A stretch of 64,000 bases of DNA from a virus: IMG/VR virus record IMGVR_UViG_3300028384_000991, positions 92,564 through 156,563 of that record; one strand, 5' to 3'. Positions within the stretch are counted from its first letter, which is position 1. Every line of letters starts with the position of its first letter. This document shows, one piece after another, positions 4,883-38,514 of the stretch. A program made the position numbers and the translations under genes. A model generated the notes under the pieces. It saw only the letters and a program-made list of their open reading frames with translations. It had not been told where the DNA came from and made no database searches.

Positions 4883-5643
4883 GGTTGGTCTCCTATTGTT
4901 ACATTATATTTAGAAAATGCTTCTTTGTCAAGTGTTTTTTCTTGGCTAACGAAGTCAATTACATCAATTCTCGCTTTGAATCCAATACTGTTTAATTGAG
5001 TTGTATCAGCAGTATTGTCCTTGCGTTCTTGTTTTCCTCCTTCACGCATTGGAACTTTAATCCCTTTTGCTTGAATAAGTTTTGATAAATGATAAGACTT
5101 GCCTGTGCCTATATCAATTATACCTTTTAGATTACTATGCATTATCATAGTAACTGCTCTACACACATCAGCAATGTGTATAAAATCTCTTGAATGATTG
5201 TTAATATATTCAACATCATTTCTCATAAGTTTTGGAATAAACATATTAGGTCTTGCATCTGATCCATAAATGGTTGTGAATCTTAAACCAACTGCATTGT
5301 CGGGTGCTTCTTTTTCCATAATATGTTTTGTATATGCATATGGATTTCTTTCAGGTTCTTTAGCAGTGCTTGAACTTGCATAGTAGATAGGAACACTGTA
5401 AAAGTCAAATAATCTTTTAGTTGCTTCTACATTGTTTTTCCAATACTCCATAGGTGAATCAAAACTTTCTCTTACTCCGCTCTTACCAGCCAAATGCACA
5501 ACAGCATCTACTTCTGGTAAGTCACAGGTATTTAGGTCTGTACCTAATTTAAGATCAATAAATGTCATATCGTAAATACCACGCCAAAACATTTTTAATG
5601 TTGATCCAAGCATTCCTTCGCTACCTGTGAGTAAAATTTTCAT
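4879..5643 (-). CDS. NAD-dependent epimerase/dehydratase (extended SDR)
   Basis: TGSEGMLG Rossmann motif, VHLAG, ASSS, YAYTK (YxxxK), RDFIHIAD. Confidence 0.9.
   Translation of the reverse strand: MKILLTGSEGMLGSTLKMFWRGIYDMTFIDLKLGTDLNTCDLPEVDAVVHLAGKSGVRESFDSPMEYWKNNVEATKRLFDFYSVPIYYASSSTAKEPERNPYAYTKHIMEKEAPDNAVGLRFTTIYGSDARPNMFIPKLMRNDVEYINNHSRDFIHIADVCRAVTMIMHSNLKGIIDIGTGKSYHLSKLIQAKGIKVPMREGGKQERKDNTADTTQLNSIGFKARIDVIDFVSQEKTLDKEAFSKYNVTIGDQP
4903..4931 (-). promoter_or_regulatory. Consensus sigma70 promoter TTGACA-17-TATAAT for clamp/dpdA unit
   Basis: tgtcaa at 4926-4931, attata at 4903-4908; also overlaps a TAAATA motif. Confidence 0.8.
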
Positions 5644-6032
5644 GCGGCTAATTCTTCCTGAATATATCTTTTTAATTCTTTGTCTTGTACGTCTGTAGGT
5701 ATTTCATTTTTATAAAAAATTCTATAACTGTCAGAACCGTACTTACCAATGCCATATAGTTGTGTAGCATCTTCACCATCCCAATCACCAAACTGTTCAC
5801 TCATTCGATATAATCTTTCTGCTCGAACACGTTGCATACCTAATGGTTGTAGTACATCTTCAATTTCTTTTTTAGTAGCATATAGCAAACTACTATGTGT
5901 AGGCCAACGTCTAAAAAACTCTGTAAGCACAGGTTTAGTTTGACGTCTGTTTACTTGATTAAGACAAATAACACCAACCATATGTTGCCATACATTGTCT
6001 ACTTGTTGTTGAACCATTAGATCATCACGCAT
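5640..6032 (-). CDS. HhH-GPD DNA glycosylase, MBD4-like
   Basis: ICLNQ, LQPLGM..RA, LYGIGKYGSDSYRIF and D-K-E-L closely follow the MBD4 catalytic domain. Confidence 0.85.
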   Translation of the reverse strand: MRDDLMVQQQVDNVWQHMVGVICLNQVNRRQTKPVLTEFFRRWPTHSSLLYATKKEIEDVLQPLGMQRVRAERLYRMSEQFGDWDGEDATQLYGIGKYGSDSYRIFYKNEIPTDVQDKELKRYIQEELAA

Positions 6033-6357
6033 CGTATCTCTTTCCATCAAACACACAAACAAATTCTAACCAATAGTCGCCGGTGTTATGAACTTTGTGA
6101 AATACATTATCTTCAATTAAAACAATGTCACCTTCTTTAACGTCAAATATTTTATGATCAAGTTCCATTTTACCTGTACCTTTTGTAAACATATAAACTT
6201 CTTCTTGACCTGCGTGTCTATGTCCATTTGTACTTTGACCCGCTCGTAACTTTGTTTTACTGAGCATCAAGTTCTTTAATGTCTTATTATCAAACAATTG
6301 ATACTGTGCATTATCTTTAATTAACTCACCGCCTACATCAAAGTTTTCATATTTCAT
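6025..6357 (-). CDS. Cupin domain protein
   Basis: GHRH..QEEVY...G.G and FHKVHNTG cupin motifs. Confidence 0.85.
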   Translation of the reverse strand: MKYENFDVGGELIKDNAQYQLFDNKTLKNLMLSKTKLRAGQSTNGHRHAGQEEVYMFTKGTGKMELDHKIFDVKEGDIVLIEDNVFHKVHNTGDYWLEFVCVFDGKRYDA

Positions 6358-6896: not shown

Positions 6897-9566
6897 TTAT
6901 TCTCCAAAGTCAAATAAGTTGTTAAATGTATTCTTGGTCTTTGTGCTTTCTAAATCATACTTCAGCACTCCGATCAAGTTGTCAAGTTTGTTATCAATGA
7001 TTGTGCCTTCCATAGCATCACCATCAAAAGGAAGTTCCTTAAACCAGTCTGGCAAATGCATTTCGTCTACTGGATATGCAACACTTGTATACCCCATTGG
7101 ATTTTGTTTTAGTTTACAAACAATAACTTTCATACCATCTACAATCTCTTGCGAATATTTGTCACTGTTCATTTTCTTAAGAGTATTCCAATTGATACTT
7201 GCTCTTACGTGTCCAGGCATATTTGCCTTGCCTTGTTTTTCTTCAAGACGCTGATAGTGTCCAATTTTGTTTGCACGTTTAGGTGAACCTTTTTCATGTC
7301 CAGGTCGTGATTTAAATTCAGTTCTAAATTCAGTAATACGATCTAAAATACTATCTTCACTTTCAAACTGCAACACTTTAAGTAATAGTTCACTCAAGAA
7401 GTCCTGCATAAACACCGGAGTATCTGAACGTTTAAGATCAAGACCCATTGCTTTTACTTTGCCTGGCTTGCCATCAACATCTACACGTTCACCTTCGTTA
7501 TCATAAATCAATGCCGCATATCTTTTCTTTGTAATATACAGTCCGCTTTCTGCAACAATCTCTCTACCTGCCGCAATTACTTCTGAACGTGTCTTAGGAC
7601 AATGGAACGCATCAAGCATAAACTTAGGAAATGATTTGTTTGCTTCTGTACAAACTTGATCATAAAGTTTAATTACATTGTCTTTACCCCAAGGAATATT
7701 ACCTGCATCAATATCTTGTTTAAGCACAGGATATGCACTAAAATAACAAGAGTCAGTATCACCATAGATAATTGCTTTACCTACGTGATTGTATTCGCCT
7801 GTAATCACCTTGTTTACTTCTGCGGACATATGTTTTACAATTTGTCTGCCTGTGAGTGTAGTAGATTGACCAATACGTCCGTCAAAGAATCTACAACCAG
7901 GATTAAGAATAGCACCATACAAACTGTTTAGATTAATTTTCTTAACAAGTTGTCGTTTGTCCCAAAACTCTATTTCTGCTTTGTTACCTGCGTCAATGGC
8001 TTTCTTTTTCATTGCCTGCATTTCTTTACGTTCTGCATACCAACGTTTTAGCAGTCCTGGAATAACACCTTCGAACTCATATGTAAAGATTGTACCATTA
8101 GCACTCAGCATCCACGGATTGTTACTATCATATATGACTTTATAAATCTGTGCACCACTCATTACATCTGATTGGCCATTTTCCCAATCAACAGTAATAC
8201 TAACATCTCTACGTTGTTCCATTACTGCATCGTATTCCATAGTGCCGAAACGTCCTTCCCAAGCCGCCGCAAATGATTTCTTTTTCAAGTTCATTTGCTC
8301 ACCAACATATTTGTTAGTAAGTTCTGGACGTAGTTGTCCTACAACAGTTTCGGGAGCCATATTCAATGCACGAATCACTGAAGGATACAGTGAATTCAAG
8401 TCCATTGATCCAATCCATTTGTGAACCCCTACTTTCGGAAATGCAACATAAGCACCAGCCGCCGGATCACTACCAGGCTCACGTTTTACTCTATTAGGTA
8501 CTTGCATACCTCTGTGATGTGCTTCGTTGATAATTGCTTGTTCTGTAACAGCAACAGCACCCATAGTTGTTTGTAGTAGCACAGTGTTTGCATGAGCAAG
8601 TTCGTTACTAAGATCAATAAATCTTAGTTTTTTATCTAACTTATCCAACAGTGCAACGTCTTGTCTGTTATATTCAATAAACGTTCTAAAATCGTTGTTG
8701 TATAGTTGATCAAGTGTGCCTTCGTAAACAGTCTTACGTTCACCGACTTCCATCTCACCAATGGCATCTAATCGATATGTATGACGTTCTTCATATGTAT
8801 ACTTCCGATATAATTCTAAACTATCTAAATGTACACGACCTACAAGATCATAAGTTTCTTGTTGTCTGCCAAACTTTTCATATTCACGCTTTTTAGGAAA
8901 CTGATCAAACAAACAAAAACGTCTTGTATCATCTTTACTCAATACTTTTGCAACACGATTAACAGTGTACGGAATATCATAACCTTCACTGTTCCAACCA
9001 GTAATGATATCACTATCTTGAATCAAATCAAGAAATGTTTTTAACATATCTGCTTCGTCTGCAAATAAATGTGTGTTAGGAAATTCTTTTACTTGTTCTT
9101 CTGCTTGTTCCATTGTAAGTGTCTTAGGCGGAACAGCAAGTGTTACAAGTGTATCAAGCCATTGCAAGTGAACAGTAATAGCAGTAATTGGCATAAACGG
9201 ATCACTTGGATCAGCAAAGCCTCTGTCAGGATCAAAGTCTGTCTCAATATCAAAAAATGCAACATTTAGTTTAGGGGCATCGTGATTGAGATAGTTTTCA
9301 CTTAGACATTGAAAGATAGGATTTACATCACTTTCATACAGATCTTTGTTTTTATTAATTGCTAATTCTTTGCGGAAATCTTTTGTGTTTTTACAAACAA
9401 TTCTGTTTAGTGGTTCACCGTGAATACTTTTATACTTTCCACGTTGGTCACCATAATAAAAAGTGTACTTGACAGGATATTCAGTAAACGATCGTTTACC
9501 TTCTTTACGTTCTACAACACGAATAATATCTGCGTTGCGATCAAAAAATGCATCTACATAACTCAT
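6897..9566 (-). CDS. polB: Family B DNA polymerase (gp43-like)
   Basis: Exo motifs FDIET, GWNSEGYD, YNRQD; polymerase motifs DLNSLYPS, KKINLNSLYG, YGDTDS, KKRY. Confidence 0.97.
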   Translation of the reverse strand: MSYVDAFFDRNADIIRVVERKEGKRSFTEYPVKYTFYYGDQRGKYKSIHGEPLNRIVCKNTKDFRKELAINKNKDLYESDVNPIFQCLSENYLNHDAPKLNVAFFDIETDFDPDRGFADPSDPFMPITAITVHLQWLDTLVTLAVPPKTLTMEQAEEQVKEFPNTHLFADEADMLKTFLDLIQDSDIITGWNSEGYDIPYTVNRVAKVLSKDDTRRFCLFDQFPKKREYEKFGRQQETYDLVGRVHLDSLELYRKYTYEERHTYRLDAIGEMEVGERKTVYEGTLDQLYNNDFRTFIEYNRQDVALLDKLDKKLRFIDLSNELAHANTVLLQTTMGAVAVTEQAIINEAHHRGMQVPNRVKREPGSDPAAGAYVAFPKVGVHKWIGSMDLNSLYPSVIRALNMAPETVVGQLRPELTNKYVGEQMNLKKKSFAAAWEGRFGTMEYDAVMEQRRDVSITVDWENGQSDVMSGAQIYKVIYDSNNPWMLSANGTIFTYEFEGVIPGLLKRWYAERKEMQAMKKKAIDAGNKAEIEFWDKRQLVKKINLNSLYGAILNPGCRFFDGRIGQSTTLTGRQIVKHMSAEVNKVITGEYNHVGKAIIYGDTDSCYFSAYPVLKQDIDAGNIPWGKDNVIKLYDQVCTEANKSFPKFMLDAFHCPKTRSEVIAAGREIVAESGLYITKKRYAALIYDNEGERVDVDGKPGKVKAMGLDLKRSDTPVFMQDFLSELLLKVLQFESEDSILDRITEFRTEFKSRPGHEKGSPKRANKIGHYQRLEEKQGKANMPGHVRASINWNTLKKMNSDKYSQEIVDGMKVIVCKLKQNPMGYTSVAYPVDEMHLPDWFKELPFDGDAMEGTIIDNKLDNLIGVLKYDLESTKTKNTFNNLFDFGE

Positions 9567-9571
9567 TGTCT

Positions 9572-9595
9572 CTCCTATGCCACTTTAGGCTGGCA
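9572..9595 (-). promoter_or_regulatory. Hairpin abutting the polB SD, candidate translational operator
   Basis: mRNA UGCCA-GCCUAAAG-UGGCA followed directly by UAGGAG. Confidence 0.4.
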
Positions 9596-9613
9596 AATAC
9601 CAAGTGTCGATTT

Positions 9614-9886
9614 TTAGCCGACGAAACTATATAAGTGCTTAACAATGCCATAAGCATATATTATTGTAAGCGTTCCGTTTAAAACAATCAATGACTTTTC
9701 TTTCCAAAGTACTCCTACGGCTGTCCAAAGTGTAGAAGCAATACCAAATCCGTATGTTGCATACATTTGATCTGGAAATGCCGAAAGTAAACCTGCTGAT
9801 GTCAATAACACCGCAGTTGATAACCATGCTAATGGTTGATACGGCTTAGCCTGTGTTTTTAATTGTCTTAAAGTATTCTTTGTCAT
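9614..9886 (-). CDS. Small membrane protein (about 3 TM)
   Basis: Three hydrophobic segments. Confidence 0.6.
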   Translation of the reverse strand: MTKNTLRQLKTQAKPYQPLAWLSTAVLLTSAGLLSAFPDQMYATYGFGIASTLWTAVGVLWKEKSLIVLNGTLTIIYAYGIVKHLYSFVG

Positions 9887-12440: not shown

Positions 12441-12581
12441 TTAGTTCTTTTTCTTTTTACGTCCGGCGCAATGTGCCTTCTGTGAGAACCCTTTAGGATT
12501 TGAACAGTTTATAGAGCGTTTGTACTTGGTGCTCCATTTTTCGTAGATTTTAGATTTATCGAGAAGTTCGATGCGTTTCAT
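12441..12581 (-). CDS. 46-aa basic two-Cys peptide, putative capsid-internal (not in ORF track)
   Basis: MKRIELLDKSKIYEKWSTKYKRSINCSNPKGFSQKAHCAGRKKKKN; TAATG coupling with upstream stop. Confidence 0.7.
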   Translation of the reverse strand: MKRIELLDKSKIYEKWSTKYKRSINCSNPKGFSQKAHCAGRKKKKN

Positions 12582-13177
12582 TACATCTTAACGCAGTTGT
12601 CTACAGTCTTTCCACCTTTTTTCTTAGTGCCCATACGCTTGTAGCCTTTCCAGCATACTTTGCCGTCAACGCCTTTTTGCTTTTCTTCTGGGAGTGTAGT
12701 GTAACTTGGGTTACCGCAATCAGGGCAAAGACCTAATGCGTCTTCTAACATAGATGCTAAAGAAGATTTATAAGATTCGTTTTTCTTTTTCTTGCTTCTT
12801 TCATGCACATATTTTTCATCTGTTTGCTTAGACTTTTTATCTTTAACAGCCTTTTTCATTGGCTCTTTTTTGTCGCCATCGCCGTCAATATCAATGTAGT
12901 CTGGTTTTGCTTTTTTTGCTTCTTGTACTTCGTCAAATTTTTGTTCGTAGTCCATATGGTGATATACTGAACCCATATAGTCAGCGGCTTTGGTAATTTT
13001 GCTTTGAACCCAACCTTCAAGACCTTCACGTTCTTCAACACCTTTTAGCATTTCGTGCATCTTAATTGCATACTTGGCAATCTTGTACAGTTCTGCACGT
13101 GCCATTTGTACTTCGTGATCTGATTCAGCCTTGTATGCTAAATCTGCTAAACCTTCTTTCAAGTGTTTCTCTCTCAT
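12581..13177 (-). CDS. Modular putative capsid-internal protein
   Basis: MREKHLKE N-terminus; DIDGDGD acidic loop, CPDC, and CWKGYK...NCVK modules. Confidence 0.6.
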   Translation of the reverse strand: MREKHLKEGLADLAYKAESDHEVQMARAELYKIAKYAIKMHEMLKGVEEREGLEGWVQSKITKAADYMGSVYHHMDYEQKFDEVQEAKKAKPDYIDIDGDGDKKEPMKKAVKDKKSKQTDEKYVHERSKKKKNESYKSSLASMLEDALGLCPDCGNPSYTTLPEEKQKGVDGKVCWKGYKRMGTKKKGGKTVDNCVKM

Positions 13178-13178
13178 G

Positions 13179-14003
13179 TTAGTTCCTCTTTACGGTTTTA
13201 CCGCCCATTAAATTATTTCCCATATCTAAAGCATTTACTGCTGTACCATCTGCTTTTTTCTTTTGTGGTGCTTTAGGTAAACCTTTTTCATCTTTTGGTC
13301 TGTGTCCATATGCTTGTAGTGGATTTGCCACTGAAGCAATGTTACCCGCTGATGTTGCACCCGCTGTTGCTACTTCTTTGATACCTGCAAGTGCTTTCAT
13401 TTCGTTAGCAAAGTCTGATGTTTGTTCTTGCTGTGTGCTTGATGCATCTGATACTAATTTTGCTAACTGCATAATATGATCTGCTTCGTCTACCGGCTTG
13501 TCTTTGTCAAGTGCCGCTTTACGTTTTGTTAATTCTTTTTTAAGTTCTGGATCCTTTGCTGTGTTTGGATCCGCTTGTAAATCTTGAATTGCTTTTTTCT
13601 TAGCATCGTAATCATCTTTGTCTTTGGTAGGTGTATAGTTAGATGATTCCGGAGCCGCCGCTTGTTTTGCCGCACCCTTTTCTGCTTGTTTAACCAGCAT
13701 CATAAACTTCTGACGCATTGCTTGATCACCAAGAATAGTTGTTAACTGCTTTGCAAATGGAGCAATCTGTTTAGCAAGGTTACCTTGTAATGCACCGCCT
13801 GATGCAAGTTTATCTAAACCCTTTGCCATCATAGCACCTGAGCCACCTTTAGCACCCATAGCCGCTCCTGCCATCTTTGCACCTTGTGCTGTTTTTTGTT
13901 GTTGCTGTGGATTAGCATCTTTTACAGCATTAGCCGCTTGTGTTGCAGGTTGTTCACCGCCTGGTACTGGCGCTTCTTTTAATGTTAGTTCTCTCAGTTT
14001 CAT
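13179..14003 (-). CDS. Ala/Lys/Gln-rich putative capsid-internal protein
   Basis: MKLRELTLKE CTS-like N-terminus; TAAATA 5 nt upstream. Confidence 0.55.
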   Translation of the reverse strand: MKLRELTLKEAPVPGGEQPATQAANAVKDANPQQQQKTAQGAKMAGAAMGAKGGSGAMMAKGLDKLASGGALQGNLAKQIAPFAKQLTTILGDQAMRQKFMMLVKQAEKGAAKQAAAPESSNYTPTKDKDDYDAKKKAIQDLQADPNTAKDPELKKELTKRKAALDKDKPVDEADHIMQLAKLVSDASSTQQEQTSDFANEMKALAGIKEVATAGATSAGNIASVANPLQAYGHRPKDEKGLPKAPQKKKADGTAVNALDMGNNLMGGKTVKRN

Positions 14004-14007
14004 AATA

Positions 14008-15792
14008 CTATTTACCTTTTTTGCCGCCCTTCATGTTAGCACACCAATGGTACATTTTACCCTTTTCTCCACCATATTTACGAGCCTTAGCACGTAAACT
14101 ACTTACACTGCCTTTGCAACTTGCACCTGCTTTTTTGACTCTGCCTGGGCGTGATTTACCCTTTTTCTTACCGTCTGCAAAGTTTTCTGTTATGTTTTGT
14201 ACATAATCATCTAACATAACCACACGAGCCATTTCAGCACCTTGTGTTGCAAGTGCATCGTATCTGTGATGACCGTTTACAATTCTACCTCTACGATCAA
14301 CTACAATAGGTTCATATGTATCTTCACGTACTTTTTTGTATTGTTTTATAAGTTTTTTGAAATCTCTATCTTTTTGCACAGGCTTAATATTAGCAAGTTT
14401 CATAACACCTTGCTTGCCATCTACATCTGAACCTTTAATTTGCGGAGGTGCTTCACCACCTGTAGGTTCAGGATCGTAATTATGATCTTGGTATCCACTT
14501 ACATCACCAACTTTATAACCTAAACGTTTTAGGTTTTTAATCATATGCTTTGCTTCTTTTTCTCCGCCAAAGAAGTTAAGATAAATGTCTTGGTCACCCA
14601 TGTTAGCATCACTTGGATCTGTTTTTGCTATGTTTGCCATGTTACGACCTATTCTCATAAAGTCGTAATCAGTTGCATCTGAGTCTACTGCATAACTATT
14701 CTTTGGAAATGGTATTTCTGTACCTTCGTCTTTTTTATTAAACTTGTGTGTGAATGCATCTTTATCTCCACGTGCCGCCGCGGCTCTTCTTGCTTTTAAT
14801 TTATCTGCTACACTTGGCTCTTCTGGAGCACGTTTTTTCTTAATAGTTGCACGTTTTGGACTACGAGCAATTTGAAAACCCATAATCTCGTTTGTATCTT
14901 CTTCTGCTGGTTTGTTAAAATAATCTTTTAAACTTGAAGCAGTTCTTTCAAACTTGTGATCTTTGTGTTTAAATCCTACACCGCCTGATGCTTCCCACTT
15001 GCTTACATTTTGACCAAAGTCGTCAATTAATATGTTAGGTGTGCCGTCTGGATTTTTTGCATATGCTTGTTTGTCTGTGGTAATAATAACTTTCTTAGGT
15101 GGAAATGCTGTAAGATTTTTCTTAACCCATTCACGCTTATGAGGTTCTGCTCTATCATCATTTGCTAACGGAGCAGATAGAATATTGTATTCACCTTTAA
15201 TATCTTTTATAATACTTAAAAGTTTATCTGCATTTGCAGTAGGTTTTAGTTTTAACCAAAAGTCGTCTGTATCTCTAATCTTTTGCAGTGCTTGGTCAAT
15301 ATTTTTAATCTGTTTCCAATCACTAACACCCATCATTTTGGTCCATTCGCCAAAGAAATCTACAAGCACACCGTCCATATCTACATAAATTTCTGAATCA
15401 CTTGATAGTTCCTTACCTTTGAGTTCGTCAAGTTTAGATTCTTTTGCCATCTTAGTTGCTGTTGCATACATAACTGCTTCAGCATCTTTACCGTAACGAT
15501 CTTTAAAGTCGCTTTTGTTCTTTTTCATGCCCTTGACGTATTTTTCTTTTTTCTTTTCTTCGCCTTTGGTTAATGAACGTTCTTCAACGCTTTCAGCCAT
15601 TCCTAAGTTAAACAGTACGTTTGTGCTTGAACCTTTTACTTTTTTGCTTAGTGTAGGCGGACGTCCATCTTTATCTACTTTGTTACCGAACTTGGCCGCT
15701 TGTTTTTTAATAGCGTCAACACCAACGTCGGGTGTAGTGTTAACACCTTTTACAACTCTACCACCATTTTCTGTTAGATCTTTGAATCTCAT
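14008..15792 (-). CDS. Modular putative capsid-internal polyprotein with HAD 5'(3')-deoxyribonucleotidase-like and ParB/Srx-like domains
   Basis: MRFKDLTE; YVDMDGVLVDF...ILSAP...LIDD (NT5C-type HAD); PIVVD...VNGHHRYDA (ParB-N); basic modules between. Confidence 0.7.
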   Translation of the reverse strand: MRFKDLTENGGRVVKGVNTTPDVGVDAIKKQAAKFGNKVDKDGRPPTLSKKVKGSSTNVLFNLGMAESVEERSLTKGEEKKKEKYVKGMKKNKSDFKDRYGKDAEAVMYATATKMAKESKLDELKGKELSSDSEIYVDMDGVLVDFFGEWTKMMGVSDWKQIKNIDQALQKIRDTDDFWLKLKPTANADKLLSIIKDIKGEYNILSAPLANDDRAEPHKREWVKKNLTAFPPKKVIITTDKQAYAKNPDGTPNILIDDFGQNVSKWEASGGVGFKHKDHKFERTASSLKDYFNKPAEEDTNEIMGFQIARSPKRATIKKKRAPEEPSVADKLKARRAAAARGDKDAFTHKFNKKDEGTEIPFPKNSYAVDSDATDYDFMRIGRNMANIAKTDPSDANMGDQDIYLNFFGGEKEAKHMIKNLKRLGYKVGDVSGYQDHNYDPEPTGGEAPPQIKGSDVDGKQGVMKLANIKPVQKDRDFKKLIKQYKKVREDTYEPIVVDRRGRIVNGHHRYDALATQGAEMARVVMLDDYVQNITENFADGKKKGKSRPGRVKKAGASCKGSVSSLRAKARKYGGEKGKMYHWCANMKGGKKGK

Positions 15793-16007
15793 TTTTTACG
15801 TCCTCTAAATTGAGGCATACCGCCAGTCATGTGTGGTAAACTAAACCATAGTTTGAACCAGTCTGGATCACCAGGTTTAATTCCTTTTTCTCTTTCAATG
15901 CGTCTTTTTTCAGTGCCTGTAATAGATAAGTTTTCGTCAACGGCAGTTAAACCTTTAAAACTATACTTGCCTACACCTGCTAATTGTTTAAGAGTTTCTA
16001 AATCCAT
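15789..16007 (-). CDS. Small hypothetical protein
   Basis: 72 aa, LKQLAGV motif, IKPGDPDWFKLWF; coupled both sides. Confidence 0.65.
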   Translation of the reverse strand: MDLETLKQLAGVGKYSFKGLTAVDENLSITGTEKRRIEREKGIKPGDPDWFKLWFSLPHMTGGMPQFRGRKK

Positions 16008-16576
16008 TATGCCTCACCAAGTATTGTTGCTAAGTTATCAAACATCTTTTTAGCATAAGGTTGTGCAGACTTAGTAACGCCTTTACTAAATGCTTCAAAG
16101 TTATTATCCATAACTGCTTGACGCATTTTACTTGCACTCATTCCCGTTGCATCATCTGCATCTGGATTACGTGATAATCTTTCAAACTTAATTTCTTCAA
16201 AGTTAAAAAATCCGTGTGCAGACTTTTGACCGTTGTATTTTTCTAATAGTTTACCTAACTTATCTTCACCTTCAAAGAAAGTTACTTTGGAATAACCTCT
16301 TGCATACAAATCACTTGCGGCAAACATAATATTTTTTGCAAGTTCGATCTTTACATCTGGGAAACTTTTTCTTGCCCAATCTAATTTTTCATTTGGATTT
16401 AGTGGATCTGTTGGAAGTTTTGCGGCTCTGTCTGTTAAGAAAAGAATTGCGTCACCTGGACCTTGTTTAAGTGCTTCAACAAGTAAGCCGTGTCCTGTTG
16501 TAGCCGGATTAAGTCTTCCTAAAGCAAAACTAACTTCTTTGCCCGACTGTTCAACAAACAATTCTCTTAACTGCAT
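16007..16576 (-). CDS. HxGH nucleotidyltransferase (phage cytidyltransferase-like) with CTS-like N-terminus
   Basis: GRLNPATTGH, PL...EK, MSASKMR. Confidence 0.8.
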   Translation of the reverse strand: MQLRELFVEQSGKEVSFALGRLNPATTGHGLLVEALKQGPGDAILFLTDRAAKLPTDPLNPNEKLDWARKSFPDVKIELAKNIMFAASDLYARGYSKVTFFEGEDKLGKLLEKYNGQKSAHGFFNFEEIKFERLSRNPDADDATGMSASKMRQAVMDNNFEAFSKGVTKSAQPYAKKMFDNLATILGEA

Positions 16577-16905
16577 TAGTACTCGCCTTCTTTAAATGCT
16601 TCTACTTCCTCTTCGTAAATCATTTCTGCAAGTGATTTACGTTCATCCATTGTGATTAATTTGTTTGGATCTTGTGCGATATCATATTTTTTTACATAAT
16701 GATCAACACCTTTGTTAATCATAGGTAAAATAAATTCAATTGGCTTATCAGAGTCACCTTTGTTGTAACACTCTTGACATTTAGCCATTGTTGGATAATA
16801 TAATTGTCTATAAAATGTAGCATCATCTCTCATATGACAAAGCAAATCACTTGGAACATCATATGAAGGATTATCTTCTCTATCTAAAATATCATCAAAT
16901 TTCAT
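16576..16905 (-). CDS. Hypothetical protein
   Basis: 109 aa, MKFDDIL N-terminus, coupled. Confidence 0.65.
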   Translation of the reverse strand: MKFDDILDREDNPSYDVPSDLLCHMRDDATFYRQLYYPTMAKCQECYNKGDSDKPIEFILPMINKGVDHYVKKYDIAQDPNKLITMDERKSLAEMIYEEEVEAFKEGEY

Positions 16906-16906
16906 A

Positions 16907-17551
16907 TTACCACTTCCTGCAAGACCAATATCTTGCCTTATGTCTCGGACCTGGATTGTCGCAGTTGTGTCTTGCTCTAAATGAGCGTCTACGTGCAGGA
17001 TTAGACTTTTTAATCTTCATATTAGGATCACCAAAATTAACCTTAACTACGTTGCCTTTTGGATTCTTAACATATACTTTAAACTTCTTAACATCGCCTT
17101 GCATAGGCTTACCAAGTTTGACTTTACGTCCTTGATATTCTGCTTCGTCTACTATATCGTCCTCGTTAAACCATAGTTCGCCGTATGCATTATAAAAGTC
17201 GTCACCGTCATATGTTTCTTCATCAATGTCAGCAAGTTCTTTGATTCTTGCTAATTCATCTGATTCGCCATATGGATCTTCTGCTACAGTGCCACAATTC
17301 ACGCACTTATCACCATAATGCATTCCACTTTCTTCACCTTGGTCCAACAACAAATTATCTAATGCGCCTTCGCCTGTTTCACCATCTGCTACTAAATCTT
17401 GATTGTCTGCTTCCCAGTCGTCAATGTATTCTTGTTTTTCTTGGGGAGTCATTTTAAATTCATTTTCACCGCCACACTTTTTGCAGTTCCAAGTGTATCC
17501 ATAATCGTCATCTGTATCTTCAGCGAGATAATCTCTAAATTTTTTAGTCAT
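16907..17551 (-). CDS. Modular putative capsid-internal protein: acidic Zn-ribbon region plus basic C-terminal domain
   Basis: MTKKFRDYLAE; CKKC...CVNC; EAEYQGRKV...VNFGDPNM...SFRARHNC...YWSCRKW. Confidence 0.65.
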   Translation of the reverse strand: MTKKFRDYLAEDTDDDYGYTWNCKKCGGENEFKMTPQEKQEYIDDWEADNQDLVADGETGEGALDNLLLDQGEESGMHYGDKCVNCGTVAEDPYGESDELARIKELADIDEETYDGDDFYNAYGELWFNEDDIVDEAEYQGRKVKLGKPMQGDVKKFKVYVKNPKGNVVKVNFGDPNMKIKKSNPARRRSFRARHNCDNPGPRHKARYWSCRKW

Positions 17552-17601
17552 ATGATCGCACCCTTTATAATACGTATTATAAAGTATTTATCACAGTTTG
17601 T

Positions 17602-17871
17602 CTATACAGAGATTTCGATATCGAACTTAGAAAACCCTAAATCAAACAGTCTATTTGCTATTCTTTCAGCAACAGCATTAGATTCTGCTTCATCTAACTG
17701 CTTGTGGGTATCAATAGTAAGCACTGTTTCGCCTTTATCGGACTCATATACTTCATATAGTGCTTCTGATTCTGTTAGTGCTTCGTCTGTGCAGTTTAAC
17801 ACTTGTTCAGCAACAATAGCATCAACATCTTCTTGTTTGCCTTGCCATACAATATTAATAAAATTACTCAT
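17602..17871 (-). CDS. Acidic hypothetical protein
   Basis: 89 aa with AGGAG SD. Confidence 0.65.
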   Translation of the reverse strand: MSNFINIVWQGKQEDVDAIVAEQVLNCTDEALTESEALYEVYESDKGETVLTIDTHKQLDEAESNAVAERIANRLFDLGFSKFDIEISV

Positions 17872-18239: not shown

Positions 18240-20492
18240 CTACGCTGTAACAGTTTCTGCTTGTTTGGTTGCAATAAGTTTGATCTTATTATCTTCAGTA
18301 GCAATATGTAAATGACCGCCGTTTTTAAGTTCACCAAACAACAATATCTTACTTAGATCACGTTTGATTTCTTTGTCAATTGTACGCTGTAAAGGTCTTG
18401 CACCCATCTTTTTGTCAAAGCCAACATCTACAAGATAGTCAATAGTTTCATCTGTAATATCAACTGTAACATTCTTTTCCGTAAGCATATCACGTAACTC
18501 TACAAGGAACTTACCAACAATCTTAATCATTGTGTTCTTTTCAAGTTTGCCAAATGCAATTACACCGTCAAGTCTATTACGGAATTCTGGTGCAAAGAAT
18601 TTTTTAAGTTCAGTATCTTCATACTCTACTTCAAGATCTTCATTGAAGCCGATGGCGTTTTTCTCTGCTTGTTCTGCACCTAAGTTTGTTGTTAGGATTA
18701 GTACAGCATTCTTCGCATCGGCTTCTTTCCCGTTGCTTCCGGTAACTTTTCCGTTATCCATTAATTGTAAAAGGATCTGCGATACGTCTGGATGTGCTTT
18801 TTCAACCTCATCAAGTAGTAATACACAGTTCGGATGCTCTTGCAATTTTGTAATCAATAAGCCTGCATTGTCCTCAAAGCCTACATAGCCTGGAGGTGAA
18901 CCGATAAGTTTAGCAACTGAATGCTTCTCTTGATATTCACTCATATCAAAACGCACAAGTTCTACACTTAGTTCATTTGCTAACTGTTTTGCTGTTTCTG
19001 TTTTACCAACGCCTGTTGGACCCATAAACACAAAACTACCTACAGGTTTGTTATCAGGCTTTAATCCTGCTTGTGCAACAAGAATTTTCTCTACAATTTC
19101 GTCAATTGCTTTATCTTGTCCATACACTTGCTTCTTAAGGTTGTCTTCAAGGTGTGCAAGGTTACTTGATTCTTTTTGTGATACCTGTTCTGGTGGAAGT
19201 TTAATTGCTTTTGCAAGTTCAAATTCAATTTCTTCTTTGCCTACAACTTTGTCACCTTCAACTGTTTTTAGATTAAATCTTGAACAAGCAAGATCAATTA
19301 AGTCGATCGCTTTATCAGGTAGTTTTTTATCAGCCATATACTTAACACTGAGTTTAATAGCAGTATCAATACCTTCTTCTGTAATCGTTGTAGTATGATA
19401 ATCTTCGTAGTATTTTTTAATACCTTGTAGAATAGACTTTGTCGTTGCTTTATCTGGTTCGCTTACACTAATACGTTGGAAACGTCTCATTAACGCACGA
19501 TCTTTTTCAAAGTACTTGCGATATTCTTCCCAAGTAGTTGAAGCAACAACTTTGATATCACCTTTACCAAGAGCAGGCTTTAGCATATTAGCAAGATCAT
19601 TTGCTCCACCACTGCCTCCTGCGGCACCTGCACCGTTCATCATATGTGCTTCGTCGATGAATACAATAGTTTTGCCTTGCTTTTTAATAGCATTCATTAC
19701 AAGTTTAAAACGTTCTTCAAAGTCACCTCTGTACTTTGATCCTGCCAACATTGCACTAATGTCAAGATTGTAAACTTTATATTCCTGTAAGAATTCAGGG
19801 ACTGCTTTATTAACAATATTATATGCAAGTCCTTCTGCAATAGCAGTTTTACCTACACCAGGATCGCCAACAAGCAATACATTGTTCTTTGCTCTACGTC
19901 CTAAAGAAAGTGCAATACTTTCAAGTTCTTCTGTGCGACCAATTACTGGATCAATTTTACTTTTTTCTACTTCTTTGTTTAGATCTTTTGAAAATTCACG
20001 TAGTGCTTTCTGTTCTACAGTACGCATTTCTTCATCTTCGTAAACTGCTTCTAACTCGTTGTTTAGATAATCAGCAAACTGTTCTTTTGTTAATCCGGAC
20101 TTTTGAATATGATAATATGACCAAGACTTTTTCTCATTCATAATACTTAAAAACACATCTGTGATTTCAATATGGTGTCTACCACTAAACAGTACTTGTG
20201 TAAATGCTCTATTTAAAACACGTTCAACTGTTGCAGTCTTTTTAGGTTTAAATTTCTTAGTGTTCTCTGCAGGAAGTGTAATATCTTCTAAATCTTTTTT
20301 AAGATAGTTTTCGATATTCTTTTTGATAAACTCTGGATCAGCACCAGCACCTTCAACAATTTTAGAAAACTTTTCACTGCACAGCATAGCAAATAGTAAA
20401 TGCTCAAGGGTCACGTACTCGTGATTCAGTTTCTTTGCATCACTTACTGACTTGTCAAATACTGCTTGTAAATCGTCGCTTGGTTCAACCAT
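18240..20492 (-). CDS. clpA: ATP-dependent Clp protease ATP-binding subunit ClpA
   Basis: Clp N-domain, two AAA modules (GDPGVGKT, GPTGVGKT), no ClpB coiled coil, IGF loop (NAIGF). Confidence 0.93.
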   Translation of the reverse strand: MVEPSDDLQAVFDKSVSDAKKLNHEYVTLEHLLFAMLCSEKFSKIVEGAGADPEFIKKNIENYLKKDLEDITLPAENTKKFKPKKTATVERVLNRAFTQVLFSGRHHIEITDVFLSIMNEKKSWSYYHIQKSGLTKEQFADYLNNELEAVYEDEEMRTVEQKALREFSKDLNKEVEKSKIDPVIGRTEELESIALSLGRRAKNNVLLVGDPGVGKTAIAEGLAYNIVNKAVPEFLQEYKVYNLDISAMLAGSKYRGDFEERFKLVMNAIKKQGKTIVFIDEAHMMNGAGAAGGSGGANDLANMLKPALGKGDIKVVASTTWEEYRKYFEKDRALMRRFQRISVSEPDKATTKSILQGIKKYYEDYHTTTITEEGIDTAIKLSVKYMADKKLPDKAIDLIDLACSRFNLKTVEGDKVVGKEEIEFELAKAIKLPPEQVSQKESSNLAHLEDNLKKQVYGQDKAIDEIVEKILVAQAGLKPDNKPVGSFVFMGPTGVGKTETAKQLANELSVELVRFDMSEYQEKHSVAKLIGSPPGYVGFEDNAGLLITKLQEHPNCVLLLDEVEKAHPDVSQILLQLMDNGKVTGSNGKEADAKNAVLILTTNLGAEQAEKNAIGFNEDLEVEYEDTELKKFFAPEFRNRLDGVIAFGKLEKNTMIKIVGKFLVELRDMLTEKNVTVDITDETIDYLVDVGFDKKMGARPLQRTIDKEIKRDLSKILLFGELKNGGHLHIATEDNKIKLIATKQAETVTA

Positions 20493-36528: not shown

Positions 36529-38514
36529 TTATGTAACTGTTATGGTATTCCACATACTTAAATGATTAGCACATTGATACCCATATGATCCTGCACCATC
36601 TATTGCTGTTTCCCAAACAGTTGCGCCACCCTGTGTTGTTATTCCTGTAACCTGATTTGCATCTCCTGTCCCTTGTGTTGTTTTGATACGCAATGGATGA
36701 AGTGCAGAAGTTATGGAATGAACGTAAAATCTTACTATATCTCCGTTATTGAATGCTAAAGTAGGCTGTGCAATATTTTCACCAATTTCACCATTTCTAT
36801 CACTGCCAGTTAAGCGATATTCATTACCGTTATTAAAAAAGTAGATATCAAAAGTTTTACTACCCTCTACTCTTTCTCTGTGTTCGAATACTGTGTCGCC
36901 ATGTAAGGGAAAATATGCTCGTCTATTAGTACCACCCATTACACTGTCTGTATCAGTATAATCATTAGTCAAACTCGTGGTATGTAGATCTTCTTTGGCA
37001 TTTCCAATAACCCAATTTTTAACTTGTGCAGGAGTCCAGTCTGGATGTGCTTGTAACAAACAAGCCATCATACCACACATCTGTGGAGCCGCCATTGAAG
37101 TGCCAGAATATTTTGCTTGACGCCAAGCACTATCTGCAAAATACGTTGATCCTTGATTGTTAGGCTGGGCACTAATTACCTGTCTACCTACAGTGTATAT
37201 TTCTACTGCTGGTCCTGTATCACTGAAGTTGGCTTTCCTACTCCAACTAACCAGACTGCCTTGCGATGTATCAGCCGAGTCAATTGCACCTACTTCAAAT
37301 CCTTCATTTATATCGCCCGTGCTAACGCCTGTGTTTGTTGTATTAAATGTATCGCCCCCTTCAAATGTTGATGGAGATTTTCCTCTGTGATAGTATTGAT
37401 AGTATGTTGTTCCACCTAAATTAAAAGTCAAATAATTGTTGTAATCTGTACCGCCAGGATGATCTATCTTCATATAGTTGTTACCAGCCGCAGTACACAC
37501 ATGAATTCCATTGTTGATTAACTGTTCTACGTCAGCATCAATTGATGCATACTTTCTACCAAACAAATAATATCCTGCACCTATATCTGGTCTGGACGAT
37601 CCAACAACACCATACTGTGTGAGATTTGATCTCACGGTTTCTGTATGAGCAACTCCTCTATGGTTACCACCAGTTACATCATAACCTGTAGAACTTAATA
37701 CAACTTGGTTTGGTGTAACATTTGTTCTTAGAAACCAACTGTATTGGAAACTCATGTTAACCACTGTTGGACGACCAGCATTTGCTCCAGATTTATTGTT
37801 GTGCCATCCAATTAAACAATCAATCATATTGTTCCAAGTGATGTTGTTTCCTGAATTAGAATAAAGAGTGATGTTGTAAATTCTTGCATTCTTGGCCCAG
37901 CCAAAGTTTTTGCCTGCCATTGTGCCTATACAGTGTGTGCCGTGACCATTCACATCTGTGTAGAAGTTTGTGGGTTGTGTGCCTGATACACCTGATTCTG
38001 TAAACCAGTTAATTTGTTGCAGTCTTGAGTTTCCGTCTGCATCTTCCCATTCTGGATGACCCACTTGTATTCCTGTATCAACAATTACCATGTCAACACC
38101 TGTCCCATCAAGTGCATATTTGTAATCTCCCATGCCTGGATCTGATGTAAGACTTTGATATGGGTTATATTCAGATGTGTGTAGTTTTAGTCCCCAGTTA
38201 GCCTGGGCACCACTTGAAGTGCTTGTTCTATTAAAGTCACCAACAAAAGTTGCAGTAGGTGTAGGTTCAGGAATTGTAGTTGGATCTGTTACAGCCATTA
38301 CTCTTGGATCATTTCTAAGAGCAGTTGCTTCTTCGTCTGATAGATGATAGTGTGTGTTTCTATTATTGATAGCACGTTCGTTACAACATTCACATTCTCT
38401 ATCAGGAATGATAGAACTGTCTACAGTTGCGTCTGCTGTTGTGTCATTGATTAGATCGTTGTGTACTTCACGCCAATCAACACCTTTATTTACGGTTACA
38501 ATATATTCTTTCAT
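36529..38514 (-). CDS. Subtilisin-family (S8) serine protease with prodomain and C-terminal cupredoxin-like domain
   Basis: Triad VDTG, HGTH, GTSMAAP; oxyanion AAGN; C-terminal HPL...YQCANHLSM. Confidence 0.88.
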   Translation of the reverse strand: MKEYIVTVNKGVDWREVHNDLINDTTADATVDSSIIPDRECECCNERAINNRNTHYHLSDEEATALRNDPRVMAVTDPTTIPEPTPTATFVGDFNRTSTSSGAQANWGLKLHTSEYNPYQSLTSDPGMGDYKYALDGTGVDMVIVDTGIQVGHPEWEDADGNSRLQQINWFTESGVSGTQPTNFYTDVNGHGTHCIGTMAGKNFGWAKNARIYNITLYSNSGNNITWNNMIDCLIGWHNNKSGANAGRPTVVNMSFQYSWFLRTNVTPNQVVLSSTGYDVTGGNHRGVAHTETVRSNLTQYGVVGSSRPDIGAGYYLFGRKYASIDADVEQLINNGIHVCTAAGNNYMKIDHPGGTDYNNYLTFNLGGTTYYQYYHRGKSPSTFEGGDTFNTTNTGVSTGDINEGFEVGAIDSADTSQGSLVSWSRKANFSDTGPAVEIYTVGRQVISAQPNNQGSTYFADSAWRQAKYSGTSMAAPQMCGMMACLLQAHPDWTPAQVKNWVIGNAKEDLHTTSLTNDYTDTDSVMGGTNRRAYFPLHGDTVFEHRERVEGSKTFDIYFFNNGNEYRLTGSDRNGEIGENIAQPTLAFNNGDIVRFYVHSITSALHPLRIKTTQGTGDANQVTGITTQGGATVWETAIDGAGSYGYQCANHLSMWNTITVT

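Follow-up and report, generated by a model that had tools for sequence, protein, structure and literature searches.

In bacteriophage T4, proteins of the head interior are loaded by way of a capsid-targeting sequence (CTS), a propeptide of 10–20 residues, and the prohead protease gp21 cuts C-terminal to Glu (PMC5694885). For the internal protein IPIII the first 10 residues are enough for head targeting, an Asp at the cleavage position blocks T4 processing, and the CTS has been proposed as a general route by which T4-like phages load diverse proteins (PMC9026906). The T4 internal proteins are basic, are present at about 300 copies each, and touch DNA phosphates with their lysines (PMC3012670, PMC9026906), while Alt is cut at ITE-6 and at LTE-619 (PMC5694885). 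The prohead proteases of giant phages cut at A/S/G-x-E, often at several sites (PMC5694885). Here we analyze P0001, a single open reading frame (ORF) of 594 residues at 14008..15792 (−) of a 64,000-nucleotide stretch (the window), which is the final 64 kb of the 156.5-kb IMG/VR contig IMGVR_UViG_3300028384_000991 from a T4-like marine myovirus. The best explanation for P0001, to which we assign a probability of roughly 60%, is that a large marine T4-like myovirus encodes it as a cargo polyprotein that is targeted to the capsid and cut there by the prohead protease.

According to this explanation, the leader MRFKDLTE would attach the precursor to the prohead's scaffolding core, and a gp21-family prohead protease would cut after E8, E67, E71, E123, E302, E356 and E536. 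The products would be an NT5C nucleotidase and a ParB/Srx-like nucleoside triphosphate-binding enzyme or nuclease, each of about 20 kDa, together with four basic peptides of about 6 kDa with isoelectric points (pI) of 9.6–10.6. The peptides would stay on the packaged DNA, as T4 internal proteins do, and the products would be ejected together with the DNA when infection starts and would act ahead of any phage gene expression. An expansion of the T4 internal-protein/Alt principle into concatenated, reshuffled cassettes appears to be the most economical reading.

The P0001 gene, stop codon included, fills the whole ORF, and its start overlaps the stop of an upstream ORF of 72 residues (ATGA). Residues 1–8 (15769..15792; all P0001 segments are on the minus strand, and arrows mark junctions) form the CTS-like leader MRFKDLTE↓ with its terminal LTE, assigned by comparison with T4; E8 is 96% conserved in the P0001 family alignment. 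Module A (residues 9–67, 59 residues, pI 10.1, 15592..15768), defined by homologue comparison and found as a stand-alone gene in phage Phosso, reads GRVVKGVNTT...LFNLGMAE↓, and a predicted piece of four residues, SVEE, separates A and B between junctions E67 and E71. Module B (residues 72–123, 52 residues, pI 9.6, 15424..15579) starts with RSLTKGEEKKKEKY... and is followed by module C (residues 124–302, 179 residues, pI 5.7, 14887..15423), an NT5C 5'(3')-deoxyribonucleotidase with the HAD fold. Homologue alignment and junction counts delimit module D (residues 303–356, 54 residues, pI 10.5, 14725..14886), a basic peptide starting with IMGFQIARSPKR.... Module E+F (residues 357–536, 180 residues, pI 6.1, 14185..14724) has an N-terminal part GxxIPxPKNS... 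and then the ParB/Srx-like domain, and module G (residues 537–594, 58 residues, pI 10.6, 14011..14184) contains 19 Lys and Arg residues and two Cys, with the form NFADGKKKGKSRPGRVKK..C..YHWC. A preceding sequence-only reading of the window had described one frame with a HAD nucleotidase, a ParB/Srx-like domain and basic peptides, and this description is borne out. All five junctions that it named exist and are conserved among homologues (LTE8↓NGG, VEE71↓RSL, LDE123↓LKG, TNE302↓IMG and ITE536↓NFADG), and two additional conserved junctions, MAE67↓S and KDE356↓G, can be added.

The residue preceding the junction (P1) is Glu in 518 of 520 junctions, counted for six unrelated modules in about 1,300 distinct proteins, and the two exceptions are the start Met. 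By module, the counts are 257/257 for G, 89/89 for B and 138/140 for E, which accounts for both start Met residues, and 14/14, 8/8 and 14/14 for the remaining junctions. Another count of G-module junctions gave Glu in 139/139, and the value was 91/91 in a further, independent set of 120 short proteins that bear G. Asp is never observed at P1 while D, E, N and T interchange at P2, and L, I, V, M, A, T and F predominate at P3. The same contexts recur at module starts (E↓NFADGKKKG for G, [VA]xE↓R[SE]L[ST]KGE for B, E↓GxxIPNPKNS for E and E↓I[LM]G for D), at module ends (LFNLG[ML][AT]E↓S for A and KP[AV]xE↓ for NT5C) and at the N-terminus (M[RK]xxx[IL]xE↓xG). In the family alignment the junction Glu residues are 87–100% conserved and the neighbouring linker residues are not; E71 is misaligned there, and is invariant by the module-based count. 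Judged from these alignments, a pattern with Glu at P1 across six unrelated modules, and Asp never, exceeds chance. A DNA-level recombination hotspot as the sole cause of the junction Glu was considered and rejected, because codons beside the junctions show synonymous differences and the Glu is encoded by GAA as well as by GAG, so that the constraint acts at the protein level rather than on a site of DNA recombination.

The P0001 family is very large, with more than 2,275 proteins of similar length and about 600 viral contigs. When P0001 was cut into segments A to G and these were mapped onto 120 homologues, 16 module architectures were obtained. The earlier view of unrelated modules strung together agrees with this result: among orthologues the modules are relocated, inserted or present as separate mini-genes, so that the domain order is variable, and the predicted inter-domain contacts are not confident. 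Module B (85–92% identical) precedes NT5C in some homologues and follows it in others, and P0019 has the order A-B-E-F-(two-Cys peptide)-C-(unknown module)-G, where the inserted two-Cys peptide (WSKKYKDSINCSNPKGFSQKAHCAGKKK) is a separate ORF of 46 residues at 12441–12581 in the window. Inserts of 100–180 residues in P0082, P0054 and P0062 include a second ParB-like stretch and hydrophobic segments, DUF5661 takes the place of module B in P0120, and F or G is missing from some homologues. Residues 70–225 of P0082 are an insert between A and B with two long hydrophobic, transmembrane-like stretches. In a Pfam search of ten diverse homologues the inserted modules were mostly without match, and only DUF5661 and the second ParB-like stretch were recognized.

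An AlphaFold2 model of P0001, built with a 56-sequence alignment, has a mean predicted local distance difference test (pLDDT) score of 68 and a predicted template modelling score (pTM) of 0.36. The NT5C (residues 130–290, about 90) and ParB-like (residues 460–535, about 85) regions are confident, while confidence is moderate for module E and for the helical G tail. The pLDDT falls below 50 in residues 1–9, 47–126, 295–326, 351–362 and 536–549, and all seven junction Glu residues lie in these segments. The model thus predicts disordered linkers, and inter-domain packing is without confidence, which is the arrangement expected for independent domains.

These observations bear on the possibility that P0001 acts uncleaved, as a multidomain cytoplasmic enzyme in, for instance, late nucleotide-pool or DNA handling, with the Glu residues and leaders serving folding, linker or translation-initiation roles. 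In cultured relatives (HTVC008M gp134 and Melnitz), NT5C has an ordinary gene of its own with a nucleotide-metabolism annotation, the P0001 cluster is flanked by replication and metabolic genes, and cleavage of P0001 is inferred. The variable domain order, the modules that occur singly with their own leaders, and the lack of confident inter-domain contacts at a pTM of 0.36 are difficult to reconcile with such an enzyme, and a linker or solubility role does not account for a P1 position that takes Glu without Asp while D and E interchange at P2. We consider an uncleaved enzyme unlikely.

The leaders are a second aspect of the cargo-polyprotein explanation. When a module is encoded alone, it has a short leader that ends exactly at the residue of the internal junction. 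Stand-alone G genes start with MRVLEIVE↓NFADGK (L001), MRLRELIKISVQE↓NFADGK (L004) or MLVSEITE↓NFADGK (L014), and more G leaders read MRAQEFVTE↓, MRAHEFITE↓, MKASEFVTE↓ and MFIREITE↓. Equivalent starts are seen for the two-Cys (W-C-C) peptide (MRAKEIIPE↓KWSAKYK), the CWKGY module (MRWAEIEE↓GTRCWKGY) and the ATSAGN module (MRLREIIE↓AATSGATSAGNVA). As for module A, Phosso (PV764938.1), a 469-kb Sinorhizobium soil jumbo phage, has a stand-alone gene of 64 residues with its own leader, MRYAEILKLLE↓DGKVVKGVNTT (L090 3965–4159), downstream of fibre-like genes, and because of this copy module A and the leader grammar reach beyond marine phages. With G, A, the W-C-C peptide, CWKGY and ATSAGN found either way, leader ends are equivalent to internal junctions at the sequence level.

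In the T4 sequences that were retrieved, IPII and IPIII begin MKTYQEFIAE↓A, IPI reads MKTFKEFT...ITE↓A, and an Alt duplicate begins MELITELFDG. The leader class M[KR]xx[ED][ILF]..E comprises MRFKDLTE↓ of P0001, MTKKFRDYLAE↓, MKLRELTLKE↓ and MQLRELFVE↓ of its neighbours, and MKTFQEYLKE in L001, and this class resembles the T4 CTS in length, pattern and terminal h-x-E. Similar N-termini are found in the syntenic region of the cultured relative HTVC008M, where gp130 (cytidyltransferase) begins MKTLKELL, gp139 MKSFKDFQ and gp143 MKTFTDFS, and a P-loop protein in the syntenic region of Melnitz begins MKTFAELQE↓GVYDP. Outside the window and near the portal gene (G000 7052–9744, numbered on the whole contig) are leader genes of 683 residues (MKLYELNT...LTE↓G) and 213 residues (MKVSQIVVE↓S...TNE↓A), of which the latter follows an ATAAATA motif and adjoins the head module. 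Both probably encode further head-internal proteins.

Module G is found on more than 3,600 other, distinct short proteins, usually at the C-terminus, always after Glu, and mostly behind a leader of the same type, in the form E↓NFADGKKKGKS+PGRVKK..C..YHWC. The cargo preceding this tail includes ART-PolyVal, NUDIX, HicA, HAD acid phosphatase, FMN reductase, pterin dehydratase and ParB domains (G-bearing examples are P0121–P0240, e.g., P0233, P0178 and P0166). P0233 is a sister protein that shares leader and tail with P0001 and contains ART-PolyVal; the packaged Alt of T4 is of this enzyme class. A search of cultured phages with module G gave zero matches and one with module A gave only Phosso, and in a protein-atlas search both modules matched unnamed viral mini-proteins only, neither belonging to a named family. 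The neighbour at 16007–16576 (−) in the window has a cytidylyltransferase fold and the leader MQLRELFVE↓. Its homologues in relatives are extended to 315–596 residues with extra modules, and the L012 copy (4927–6228) ends in a G tail; because of these extensions we predict that this gene is another cargo polyprotein.

P0001 belongs to a cluster of eight co-oriented, gap-free genes (46, 198, 274, 594, 72, 189, 109 and 214 residues; 12441..17551, minus strand) with no predicted terminator between them. An ATAAATA late-promoter motif at 17585..17591 (−) is located 34 nucleotides upstream of the first cluster gene (ORF 16907–17551), and in related loci, too, the motif precedes the gene that opens the cluster. 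The window has 12 copies of this 7-mer where about 25 are expected, i.e., it is about two-fold depleted, and every copy immediately precedes a gene, on the coding strand of that gene; tail, fibre and virion genes make up most of these (motif positions 17585, 18227, 22496, 25395, 31842, 33221, 35800, 36520, 40411, 47884, 53304 and 57914). In the whole contig, 24/24 copies are within 80 nucleotides upstream of a gene start on the same strand. By its distribution, ATAAATA is a clean putative late-promoter marker for this phage group, and from this promoter motif late expression of the P0001 cluster is predicted. The exact T4 late promoter TATAAATA was rejected as the working motif, having one copy in the window, in favour of the 7-mer ATAAATA, where the first base is variable. 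The early genes have TTGACA-N17-TATAAT promoters.

Of five long relatives that have a P0001 homologue, three possess a Peptidase_S77 (gp21-family) protease that exceeds the Pfam cut-off and belongs to a head module in T4 order; a gp21 homologue is located at L088 7591–8229. The major capsid protein of the relatives reads TLE33↓NTKRYLAE41↓NATAGATSAGNVATL, and the stretch behind E41 has copies in stand-alone leader genes and in a cargo module of the adjacent 274-residue ORF (KE↓VATAGATSAGNIASV). The loci concerned are 13179–14003 (−) in the window (the 274-residue ORF, KE↓VATAGATSAGNIASVANP), L052 7652–7867, L053 5370–5585 and L088 9355–10518; the capsid-like module of the 274-residue ORF always follows Glu, and is present in 13 related loci. 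It could be a capsid-arm mimic, a shell anchor or a protease exosite. We do not claim LAE-41 as the capsid maturation site, since the offset to T4 E65↓A66 fits TLE-33 equally well.

The same data can be set against a scenario in which P0001 is a processed polyprotein but not capsid cargo, with some other Glu-specific protease of the phage or the host cutting it in the cytoplasm and the leader being a tag for stability or localization. A P3 preference that is wider than the T4 L/I-x-E would agree with another protease, and protease-related genes are found nearby, a ClpA-like gene at 18240–20492 and a protease-like PHROG match at 36529–38514. On the other hand, by their length, their pattern and their h-x-E ending the leaders fall into the T4 CTS class, the stretch behind LAE-41 of the relatives' capsid protein has its copy in the ATSAGN module, the late-promoter context is the one common to virion genes, and gp21 is the sole Glu-specific protease family identified in the relatives. 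Cytoplasmic processing by another protease is therefore regarded as highly improbable.

Several points weigh against P0001 as capsid cargo. Cleavage, packaging and ejection of its products are what we infer from sequences and models. P3 is looser than in the classical T4 L/I-x-E, with K, S and N occurring, chiefly at the E↓G junction, and in a search of cultured phages P0001 was matched solely via NT5C, with no cultured phage having the whole protein. Leaders are present in 6–7 of the 8 cluster genes compared with 6–12 of the 169 other ORFs of the contig, but the Fisher p of about 5e-7 is approximate, because the leader pattern was defined after inspection of the data. The fold of module E is of low confidence, and when E+F was folded alone, the pLDDT was below 50 over the first 54 residues of E. 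A near-consensus sigma-70-like TAGACA-N17-TATAAT at 17576–17604 (−) overlaps the late motif of the cluster, which may create a dual early and late promoter upstream of the cluster and leaves room for early cytoplasmic expression. The cluster is placed among replication and metabolism genes, outside the head module. Finally, the 156.5-kb contig gave no PF03420 match and no tblastn match to T4 gp21, and thus no prohead protease. A truncated, acidic gp67-like ORF opens the contig, followed by the portal gene, the only head gene found and located at the contig edge; by T4 gene order, this start places the protease, scaffold and capsid genes just off the contig end. The proposal of the sequence-only reading is supported in part. 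Its structural half, that the prohead protease would release separate products, agrees with all computational tests applied, namely those of the shuffling, the invariant Glu residues, the predicted disorder of the linkers and the leaders, and also with the late motif and the gp21 of relatives, whereas the protease gene is missing from the contig.

By profile, motifs and fold, module C is an intact NT5C 5'(3')-deoxyribonucleotidase with predicted activity. The Pfam profile PF06941 covers residues 135–270 with 29.8 bits against a cut-off of 24.8, PHROG 2643 (5'-3' deoxyribonucleotidase) matches with an E-value of 1.9e-22, and the HAD motifs D138-M-D140-G-V, K241 and D257-D258 are invariant across homologues. 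The best Foldseek matches are the cytosolic and mitochondrial 5'(3')-deoxyribonucleotidases (cdN and mdN; 2jao, 6g2l and 1mh9) with E-values of about 1e-5. As for the ParB-like domain, ParB-like PHROG families match residues 480–532 (best E-value 1.7e-6), the ParB/Srx boxes PVQxxR and NGHHRxDA are invariant across homologues, and Foldseek returns ParB N-domains, Noc and the ParB/Srx-fold serine kinase SerK with E-values from 6e-4 to 1.5e-3. Pfam ParB_N scores 16.7–18.2 in homologues relative to a gathering score of 26.3, and was not reported for P0001 itself. NT5C enzymes are phosphomonoesterases that act on (deoxy)nucleoside monophosphates, and are not cyclic-nucleotide phosphodiesterases. 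Because NT5C is a phosphomonoesterase, and because nothing in the present data connects the ParB-like domain with signalling nucleotides, the suggestion that the cargo counteracts nucleotide-signal defences finds no support beyond the fact that both enzymes belong to nucleotide-handling families.

The invariance of the NT5C catalytic residues and the ParB boxes also bears on whether the products, if packaged and cleaved, have a mainly structural role, where A, B, D and G would neutralize and organize a very large genome in its densely packed state, with the enzymes as passengers or acting within the head. Peptides of 6 kDa with pI 9.6–10.6 make up four of the six predicted products, and the basic T4 internal proteins with their about 300 copies each and lysines on DNA phosphates (PMC3012670, PMC9026906) offer a precedent. 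The genome is probably large as well: CheckV completeness of the 156.5-kb contig is 44%, G-tail proteins sit on 321–329 kb contigs, and these values suggest a jumbo T4-like marine phage lineage of about 350 kb. The gene content of the window includes a family-B DNA polymerase, clamp loader, ligase, ClpA-like ATPase, and baseplate and fibre genes. However, the catalytic residues and boxes are invariant, and the cargo that shares leader and tail consists mostly of enzymes typical of take-over or conflict (ART-PolyVal, NUDIX, HicA, ParB and nucleotidases), which makes a mainly structural role decidedly unlikely.

Beyond P0001, we tentatively propose, at slightly less than even odds, that large marine T4-like phages share an ocean-wide grammar for cargo loading, consisting of a leader of about 8–13 residues, Glu-only joints and a common basic two-Cys tail (E↓NFADGKKKG...). 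Thousands of swappable cassettes (nucleotidases, ParB-like domains, NUDIX, ART, HicA, phosphatases and DNA-binding peptides) would be loaded, cut and injected as a ready-made effector set, and recombination at the joints would generate new combinations. No account of such a polyprotein system with leader and Glu joints was found in the literature searched, and the pelagimyophage genome paper PMC7029224 does not mention the P0001 cluster. If the proposal is correct, marine T4-like phages pre-package a far larger and more modular protein set than the three or four internal proteins of T4, and the cut-site grammar is simple enough for prediction of virion cargo from sequence alone. Thousands of ocean-virome genes annotated as “hypothetical” or “auxiliary metabolic” (NT5C, NUDIX, cytidylyltransferase and others) would become candidate injected effectors, and what phages deliver at infection would be testable in metaproteomes as semi-tryptic peptides after the junction Glu. 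The natural leaders and joints would also be available for loading of foreign proteins into T4-type heads.

Of the systems that can be compared with P0001, the cellular and phage 5'(3')-deoxyribonucleotidases (cdN, mdN and HTVC008M gp134) share the HAD fold and the DMDGV, K and DD motifs with module C, but these enzymes stand alone, whereas the NT5C of P0001 sits in a leader-bearing, Glu-jointed polyprotein. The polyvalent proteins (Iyer et al. 2017, PMC5512222) are, like the P0001 family, shuffled mosaics of enzymatic effector domains. They have ParB/Srx-like and ART-PolyVal domains in common with P0001 and its sister, and delivery with the DNA, sometimes with proteolytic processing, is predicted for them. 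ART-PolyVal is carried only by the sister P0233 and not by P0001, and MPTase, zincin-like or other polyvalent signature domains were not found by Pfam in P0001 or the ten homologues. Furthermore, genuine polyvalent proteins do not include the ARTs of T4-like phages according to PMC5512222. In P0001 no in-chain peptidase was detected, so that processing would take place in trans, by the prohead protease at regular Glu sites, and the modules are small (50–180 residues) with many basic peptides among them.

In the giant phages phiKZ, 201phi2-1 and SPN3US, many head-internal proteins are cut after Glu (A/S/G-x-E), some at several sites, as is proposed for P0001. Targeting is a function of the propeptides in these phages, too, and they have a large genome and much head cargo, as is proposed for the phage of P0001. 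Unlike the P0001 leader, these propeptides exceed 100 residues, the products are mostly single large proteins, and the protease is of family S80, a distant relative of gp21. Shuffled concatenated modules are not described for the ejection or inner-body proteins of giant phages.

P0001 can also be compared with IPI, IPII, IPIII and Alt of T4. In both systems there is a short leader ending in h-x-E (MKTYQEFIAE↓ and ITE-6 in T4, MRFKDLTE↓ in P0001), and the Glu-specific cut by a gp21-family protease known from T4 would have its counterpart in P0001. Small basic products, which are predicted for P0001, and a hyperplastic locus are further common features, and the loading of an enzyme, the ADP-ribosyltransferase Alt, has a parallel in the ART-PolyVal of the P0001 sister protein. 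In sequence, P0001 has nothing but the short leader pattern in common with the T4 internal proteins. The T4 internal proteins are single-module and lose the leader only, Alt also losing a C-terminal piece, whereas P0001 would yield up to eight concatenated and reshuffled pieces, each with its junction Glu and ending in the shared two-Cys tail.

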